Origin: a virus
Taxonomy: Duplodnaviria; Caudoviricetes
Strand: one strand, 5' to 3'
IMG/VR virus record: IMGVR_UViG_3300014208_000023
Span: 352,001-416,000 of that record
DNA: 64,000 bases
Shown here: positions 18,597 through 18,812 of the stretch, piece by piece
How the letters are laid out: the number at the start of each line of letters is the position of its first letter
How positions within the stretch are numbered: position 1 is the first letter of the stretch
Made by a program: the position numbers and the translations under genes
Notes under the pieces: model-generated
Seen by the model: only the letters and a program-made list of their open reading frames with translations
What the model was told of the DNA's origin: nothing
Database searches by the model: none

Positions 18597-18812
18597 GTGC
18601 AAATCGGTTTTGGAGGCCGATCTGCACTTTTTACTGGTTTTGCAGGCCAACCAGCCAACCTAGATCGGGCTCCACTACTTTATCGCTCTGGTCCTTTTTG
18701 GTAGAGTTTAGGTGCTTCATTGCCCTCTTTGTTTGTATTCCGAACCAGAGAAGCAGGCCTCCAAAAACGGACATCTGCCTTACGCTTTGAGTCCGCCCGT
18801 TGGAGCGTAAAA
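18597..18812 (-). ncRNA. candidate structured RNA (~215 nt)
   Basis: UUUUGGAGGCC/GGCCUCCAAAA long-range stem, CUCUGGUUC/GGACCAGAG, UUACGCU/AGCGUAA with possible pseudoknot, GUGCAGAUCGG/CCGAUUUGCAC. Confidence 0.5.

Follow-up and report, generated by a model that had tools for sequence, protein, structure and literature searches.

A structured non-coding RNA of a family absent from Rfam, lying between a tRNA look-alike and tRNA-Gln in the tRNA array of a megaphage

The locus and its counterparts in related phages

The DNA analyzed here (the window, 64,000 nucleotides in all) is taken from the complete genome of a 428-kb megaphage (428,320 bp, direct terminal repeats), of which it spans bases 352001-416000. 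Between 17.8 and 20.0 kb of the window, the minus strand carries an array of tRNA-like genes with short ORFs interleaved among them. The members of this array at 17884-17954, 18088-18158, 18819-18889, 19499-19569 and 19898-19967 (all on the minus strand) score 37-42 bits on the Rfam tRNA model, yet they have an anticodon loop of 6 nt, and ARAGORN assigns to them an 'anticodon' of 2 nt only; we refer to them as tRNA look-alikes, and their counterparts are also found in the related contigs L005, L009 and L013 described below. BLAST yielded additional look-alike copies at ~17957-18031 and ~19112-19180, and the look-alikes are conserved in related phages, with covariation of their acceptor stems.

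Between the look-alike at 18819-18889, with its 6-nt anticodon loop, and a normal tRNA-Gln(UUG) at 18431-18503 lies an element of 315 nt (18504-18818, minus strand), present as a single copy in the phage genome, which occurs in synteny in four lineages, harbors no conserved ORF and matches no Rfam family at threshold. A first-pass annotation of this DNA had placed a structured RNA at 18597-18812; the stretch is structured as claimed, but these limits cut the unit, with conserved helices reaching as far as 18504. Behind tRNA-Gln, the minus strand encodes a 79-aa membrane protein (18168-18407) and then a 553-aa protein (15938-17599), the latter 1 kb downstream of the element, while a phage-encoded GluRS is found 5 kb downstream. 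The 79-aa protein has homologues in unrelated phage contigs, beside NUDIX or DUF7768 genes, and is absent from L013; we regard its gene as a small mobile one, outside the RNA unit. As for the 553-aa neighbor, it combines PF20530-type repeats with a C-terminal half that is conserved; its repeat region is matched by 680 database proteins and its full length by only ~12, all of these on megaphage-like contigs.

Homologues of the element were located via this 553-aa protein, relatives of which, with 69%, 65% and 45% identity, are encoded on contigs of 250-430 kb. The layout common to these relatives comprises a ClpB-like gene, a HARE-HTH gene, the look-alike array, the element, tRNA-Gln, the 553-aa gene and GluRS, with the syntenic homologues of the element at L005:4497-4827, L009:4578-4911 (the 65% lineage) and L013:5317-5622 (the most distant one). 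The comparison set accordingly consists of four megaphage lineages (the window, L005, L009 and L013), three of which are fairly close, and additional copies within each lineage are identical. The element is conserved in all four lineages and is always positioned between an anticodon-less tRNA look-alike and tRNA-Gln(UUG). Its 5' 150 nt display 83-93% identity among the three closer lineages, equal to that of the tRNA look-alike, vs. 59-72% for the flanking protein genes across the same lineages. The tRNA-Gln of L009 is only 66% identical to that of the window, and we read this pattern of identities as a link of the element to a tRNA-Gln and not to one particular tRNA sequence. In L009 (4912-5074), the divergent tRNA-Gln(UUG) is followed by an extra tRNA-Met, and the last ~30 nt of the element upstream are almost unchanged.

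Further searches were conducted for members outside this set. Exact-pattern scans with the conserved core in viral, metagenome and genome collections gave chance matches only, a scan with the tRNA look-alike motif returned unrelated contigs only, and protein-anchored scans of IMG/VR with 4 queries found no relatives. Contigs L017-L021 and L031-L033 were without a match to R1, our covariance model of the 5' domain (L018 was also without genes), and L016, of a 43% lineage, harbors neither the tRNA-Gln nor the element. In six more lineages of the 553-aa neighbor, the contigs start inside the look-alike array and do not contain the element; short-read contigs of at least four lineages (L012, L022, L023 and L024) start within the last tRNA look-alike. 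We surmise that the repeat array breaks assemblies, so that additional copies of the element would be hidden from contig-based searches.

Architecture of the element

All the complementary blocks quoted in the first-pass annotation were found on the minus strand, to which all coordinates of structural features below refer. The comparison with shuffled controls that it had proposed showed 18597-18812 to be more stable than dinucleotide shuffles, with an MFE of -74.7 kcal/mol vs. -58.8 +/- 4.3 (z -3.7); the corresponding z is -3.2 for the whole spacer and -2.6 for the most distant homologue. R1, for which only the three close sequences were used and L013 was left out, recovered L013 at the syntenic place (47.7 bits, E ~1e-10) and gave no other match. 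In the R1 alignment, standard pairs account for 93% of the cells and compensatory changes are seen at 8 of 26 pairs, values which 0/500 shuffles reached, while sliding the partners by 1-3 columns yielded at most one compensatory pair; these counts are of limited weight, the alignment having been fitted to the model and most of the signal coming from L013. A second model, R2, covers the last 93 nt of the element, i.e. a portion outside the limits first proposed, and aligns L013 at 23.8 bits, with 100% of the cells paired and 9 of 21 pairs compensatory. The covariation counts rest mostly on L013, and four lineages, three of them close, are too few for R-scape-type statistics.

The 5' domain opens with hairpin P1 (18780-18810), which corresponds to the UUACGCU/AGCGUAA pairing noted earlier (18804-18810/18780-18786) and which covaries, with 7 bp in the window, a 5-bp core in all lineages, 2 compensatory pairs and 1 wobble change. 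The P1 loop measures 17 nt in all four lineages and carries a conserved CCAAC-GGCGGACU motif. This loop had been proposed to form an H-type pseudoknot, GGGCGGAC/GUCCGUUU (18791-18798 with 18765-18772); the pairing is present, with 8/8 pairs in the window, L005 and L009 and one G.U to G-C change, but it drops to 4/8 in L013, where the partner strand is absent. A duplex search yielded another candidate, which we designate PK', in which loop residues 18795-18801 pair with 18751-18758, leaving one bulged base. PK' has 7 bp in each of the four lineages (28/28 cells paired), includes one G.U to U-A double change and loses the bulged base by deletion in L013; on its own, however, it is not significant, as 121/500 shuffles reach it owing to the small number of variable columns. 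Its partner strand lies 10 nt further downstream than that of the pseudoknot first proposed, and the two overlap by four bases. In addition, a tentative hairpin P2 (UUCU/GGAA, 18738-18752) is paired in 4/4 lineages with one-sided change only and overlaps PK' by two bases, with the result that P2, PK' and the earlier pseudoknot compete for the same bases within 18738-18780. We consider it likely from these comparisons that the P1 loop engages in some pseudoknot, the partner strand being a choice between the candidates.

The next part is an arm (18667-18725) with covarying stems and an invariant tandem G.A, the base of which comprises: 1) a C-stem (18722-18725/18667-18670) of 4 pairs ending in C-G, 94% paired and with 1 compensatory pair; 2) a 3-nt bulge (18719-18721) that reads AAU, and GUU in L013; 3) the tandem G.A (18717-18718 with 18671-18672), in which the G, A, G and A are invariant in the four lineages; and 4) an NC stem (18713-18716/18673-18676) with compensatory changes at 3/4 pairs, which is weak in the window phage itself (81% paired). 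The base of the arm is the sequence signature of a kink-turn. The C-stem ending in C-G, the 3-nt bulge, the tandem G.A/A.G and the NC stem are shared with known kink-turns (Kt-7, box C/D, T-box stem I and SAM-I), and the non-bulged strand reads GGAGCC, which we take to be the reading in Kt-7 as well. A kink-turn is nonetheless a motif and not a family, and the element is devoid of the D box, specifier loop or riboswitch core of these RNAs. No protein of the L7Ae family (PF01248) is encoded in the phage.

Above its base, the arm continues into the local hairpin P3 (18703-18706/18686-18689), with 2 compensatory pairs, and ends in a cap, CC[AAAAA]GG (18693-18701), of which CCAAAAAGGA is invariant. 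The pairing CUCUGGUUC/GGACCAGAG (18742-18750/18686-18694) that had been suggested for this region does exist as 9 bp in the window, but it is not conserved: both substitutions in L005 and L009 break pairs, and L013 keeps 5/9. Since its 3' strand belongs to the covarying P3, the local hairpin is the better reading.

On the 3' side of the arm, every lineage folds two hairpins, in the places of P4 and P5. P4 (18633-18655), preceded by a conserved AGGUU (18657-18661), contains the CUGGUU/AACCAG blocks noted earlier and shows compensatory double changes at 4/7 positions, whereas P5 (18597-18627) is the perfect 11-bp 3' hairpin (18617-18627/18597-18607) of the first-pass annotation, with compensatory changes at 5/8 outer positions and no U-tract following it; both counts were taken from a hand-anchored table. 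Covariation among homologues, proposed at the outset as a check on the structure, supports P1, P4 and P5. The last part of the element folds into hairpin P6 (18560-18585), which has an A-rich loop, compensatory changes at 5/7 pairs and 100% of its cells paired, and into the three-way junction P7 (18510-18556), the closing helix of which (18550-18556/18510-18516) has compensatory changes at 4/6 pairs. Two inner hairpins (18533-18545 and 18519-18529) complete P7 in the window, while L013 has one, not two. P7 ends six bases upstream of tRNA-Gln, and the leader of 6-7 nt that precedes the tRNA +1 (18504-18509) is identical in the four lineages.

Other contacts within the element were considered. 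Three conserved GGUU segments, located after the kink-turn arm (18657-18661), in P4 (18649-18652) and before P6 (18589-18593), each have a potential partner in the single AACC of P4 (18636-18639), and may form a pseudoknot or an alternative pairing; in L013, the first GGUU pairs with AACC in the P4 loop, similar to the situation in drum RNAs. Pairings of the P5 loop with another loop or with a strand, a pairing of the A5 loop with a U-run and pairings of the invariant CAGAU were discarded upon inspection by eye, as substitutions in the relatives break them.

A proposed life for the RNA and the case for a role in cis

We hold with high confidence that the element is a genuine structured non-coding RNA. 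The original proposal of a structured, non-coding RNA within a tRNA operon is borne out by the compensatory changes described above and by the broken ORF discussed in the final section. In Rfam scans (4227 families, E up to 10), 17500-20500 yielded tRNAs only, as did L009 and L013 apart from noise, and ARAGORN detected no tmRNA; short motif resemblances to SRP RNA, tmRNA, RNase P RNA, 6S and Y RNA were dropped, with no support from the Rfam models. Based on sequence and covariation, we therefore describe the element as the gene of a structured RNA family absent from Rfam.

How such an RNA would be produced is suggested by its position. We infer that it is transcribed as part of the tRNA array; a scan of its strand (minus) showed neither promoter- nor terminator-like sites within the element. 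RNase P and 3'-processing nucleases set the ends of RNAs lying between tRNAs; for the element, the 3' end would result from RNase P cleavage at the +1 of tRNA-Gln and the 5' end from the action of the tRNA 3'-end machinery on the look-alike, leaving either a product of ~315 nt or a stable 5' domain (about 150 nt). We postulate that the kink-turn bends the arm and thereby lets its A-rich tip pack with the pseudoknotted loop in a compact core, and that this core presents the invariant unpaired bases (GGCGGACU in the P1 loop, CAGAU after P1 and the A5 cap) to a protein or RNA partner. The element may then act as a stable small RNA or as an RNP scaffold in infection, as thought for T4 species 1/2 and for GOLLD/ROOL. 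A search of the genome for a trans target of the P1 loop returned only sites with 3 mismatches. To the account as a whole, which includes excision and action in trans and in which transcription, ends and stability are deduced, we assign a probability of about 0.5.

The RNAs that come closest to this proposal in their setting are not its homologues by our models. In T4, rnaC and rnaD (species 1/2) are annotated as stable RNAs directly behind tRNA-Arg; these RNAs are released by the tRNA-processing machinery and, like the element, they lie in a phage tRNA cluster and directly abut a tRNA gene. In contrast to the element, with its ~315 nt between a look-alike and tRNA-Gln, they comprise 119-139 nt at the 3' end of the cluster, and the best scores on the T4 tRNA cluster (2.5 bits with R1, 12.9 bits with R2) are noise, neither falling meaningfully on rnaC/rnaD. 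GOLLD (RF01998) and ROOL (RF03087) are ornate RNAs of phages and prophages, 'often near tRNA islands', to which no function has been assigned (PMC12286853). With ~580-800 nt or more, they form RNA-only nanocages, whereas the element is half that size or less and differs in architecture; neither 17500-20500 nor the relatives were matched by the GOLLD and ROOL models at E up to 10.

The roles of tRNA arrays in large phages are still debated, and the few structured RNAs known in them (T4 species 1/2, GOLLD and ROOL) have gone without an assigned function for decades. With the element, this list gains a compact member of ~315 nt in which a clean kink-turn is combined with a probable pseudoknot and with unpaired bases that are strikingly invariant, and which is tied to an unusual neighborhood (tRNA look-alikes, tRNA-Gln and a phage-encoded GluRS). 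Its small size makes it amenable to probing, pull-downs and cryo-EM, and R1 and R2 can be used to gather members; should the kink-turn RNAs in phage tRNA arrays turn out to have a partner in common, this would offer access to the function of the group as a whole.

The main rival to excision and action in trans is a role in cis, in which the element would be a spacer or leader that governs the maturation, processing order, stability or yield of tRNA-Gln or of the array and is then degraded; it might, for instance, present the 5' leader to RNase P or block exonucleases. That the element is always fused to tRNA-Gln(UUG), with the fusion persisting where the tRNA itself is only 64-66% identical, is compatible with this notion, as are the absence of a promoter or terminator of its own, the covarying P7 that ends six bases before +1 and the invariant leader of 6-7 nt, which fits a cis role equally well. 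However, the best-conserved part of the element is the distal 5' domain, situated 160-310 nt from the tRNA, and the invariant unpaired motifs, the kink-turn and the likely pseudoknot exceed what a processing spacer would need. Moreover, the other tRNAs of the phage have no comparable leader. A function in cis is therefore one that we regard as possible but rather unlikely.

Known families, switching and coding

In form, the nearest catalogued relative of the element is drum (RF02958), and one could envisage that the element is a divergent and enlarged drum RNA, in which ~18629-18725 is the drum core (made up of the kink-turn arm, the conserved GGUU, P4 and the A-run), P5 takes the place of the terminator, and the 5' and 3' domains have been added. 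Drum contains a kink-turn (PMC11702757); its original description is that of a widespread motif with a Rho-independent terminator at the 3' end and a reported association with a particular protein gene nearby (PMC5737381). In narrow scans, it was the sole Rfam family to appear on homologous positions of two lineages, with 15.3 bits (E 0.76) at 18629-18725 of the window and 17.8 bits (E 0.19) in L013, and a genuine drum RNA from a bacterial genome (L038, 52 bits) displays the same order of parts, namely kink-turn arm, GGUU, hairpin, A-run and stem-loop. These scores, however, are far under the gathering score of 43 bits; matches of ~13 bits occur at random both in the phage genome and in control genomes, drum is unmatched in L005 and L009, and R1 scores only 6.6 bits on the genuine drum RNA. 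In addition, P5 has no U-tract, there is no terminator-like site on the minus strand, and a large part of what the two have in common reflects the generic kink-turn consensus. The two also differ in design, drum being a stand-alone sRNA ended by a terminator while the element has large extra 5' and 3' domains and resides in a tRNA array. We thus find membership in drum doubtful, with a resemblance at noise level. The best whole-genome drum match elsewhere in the phage (4245-4352, minus strand; 12.9 bits, E 1.8) lies at this same noise level and provides a calibration for the weak scores of the element.

A bolder extension of the trans reading takes its cue from the neighboring genes. One may speculate that the element is the scaffold or adaptor of a phage RNA-protein system with the anticodon-less tRNA-Glu look-alikes, tRNA-Gln(UUG) and the phage GluRS, its kink-turn and invariant loop recruiting a protein to charged or uncharged tRNA-like RNAs, either for a non-ribosomal use of aminoacyl-tRNA or as a decoy against host defence that targets tRNAs, and that kink-turn RNAs in phage tRNA arrays make up a widespread and as yet undescribed functional class; we offer this as a long shot.

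The first-pass annotation had also seen switch-like alternatives in this DNA, and a switch or a ribozyme would entail that the RNA passes between two states by exchanging its pairings, or that such pairings bring about co-transcriptional self-cleavage. It is true that several blocks in this phage have more than one possible partner, that three GGUU copies compete for one AACC, and that the invariant junction bases resemble those of aptamers. The alternative stems that had been named are nevertheless not conserved: the blocks of the 11-nt long-range stem (18756-18766/18608-18618) are present in the window, but have no counterpart in any relative, and the stem is not mutually exclusive with the 11-bp hairpin P5 as had been thought, for the two share an overlap of two bases only, the remainder being the loop of the hairpin. 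Altogether, two of the six pairings quoted at the time are not kept in the relatives and one is kept in three of the four lineages only. Riboswitch, T-box and ribozyme families were unmatched at E up to 10, save for noise on the wrong strand, and the element has neither a downstream ORF nor an expression platform, the next gene being a tRNA. Nothing in these results supports a switch or co-transcriptional self-cleavage, and we deem either improbable.

The proposal that the 61-aa ORF (18631-18816) or another small ORF specifies a functional product is scarcely credible, even though its ATG lies 3 bases past the tRNA look-alike, as with real ORFs elsewhere in the array, because this ORF is broken in all three related lineages, as evidenced by: 1) a deletion of 1 nt directly after the ATG in L005 and L009, which shifts the frame; 2) a stop after 11 codons from that ATG in L009, after 30 in L013 and, as read from the alignment, a TAA after ~11 codons in L005; and 3) stops in L005 and L009 within the frame used by the window itself. 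Conservation of this ORF at the protein level had been named as the finding that would speak against a structured RNA; what we found instead is an ORF thrown out of frame one base after its ATG, with early stops in 3/3 relatives. Neither strand offers a frame that has a start codon and stays open throughout the four lineages, and the substitutions in the element track base-pairing and not codon positions, from which we take 18504-18818 to be non-coding. The heptamer CACUAUG (18812-18818), situated 3' of the look-alike, is invariant in 4/4 lineages, though conservation does not extend to the ORF behind its ATG; real ORFs at other places of the array do begin at such an ATG, which suggests tRNA-punctuated and nearly leaderless messages.
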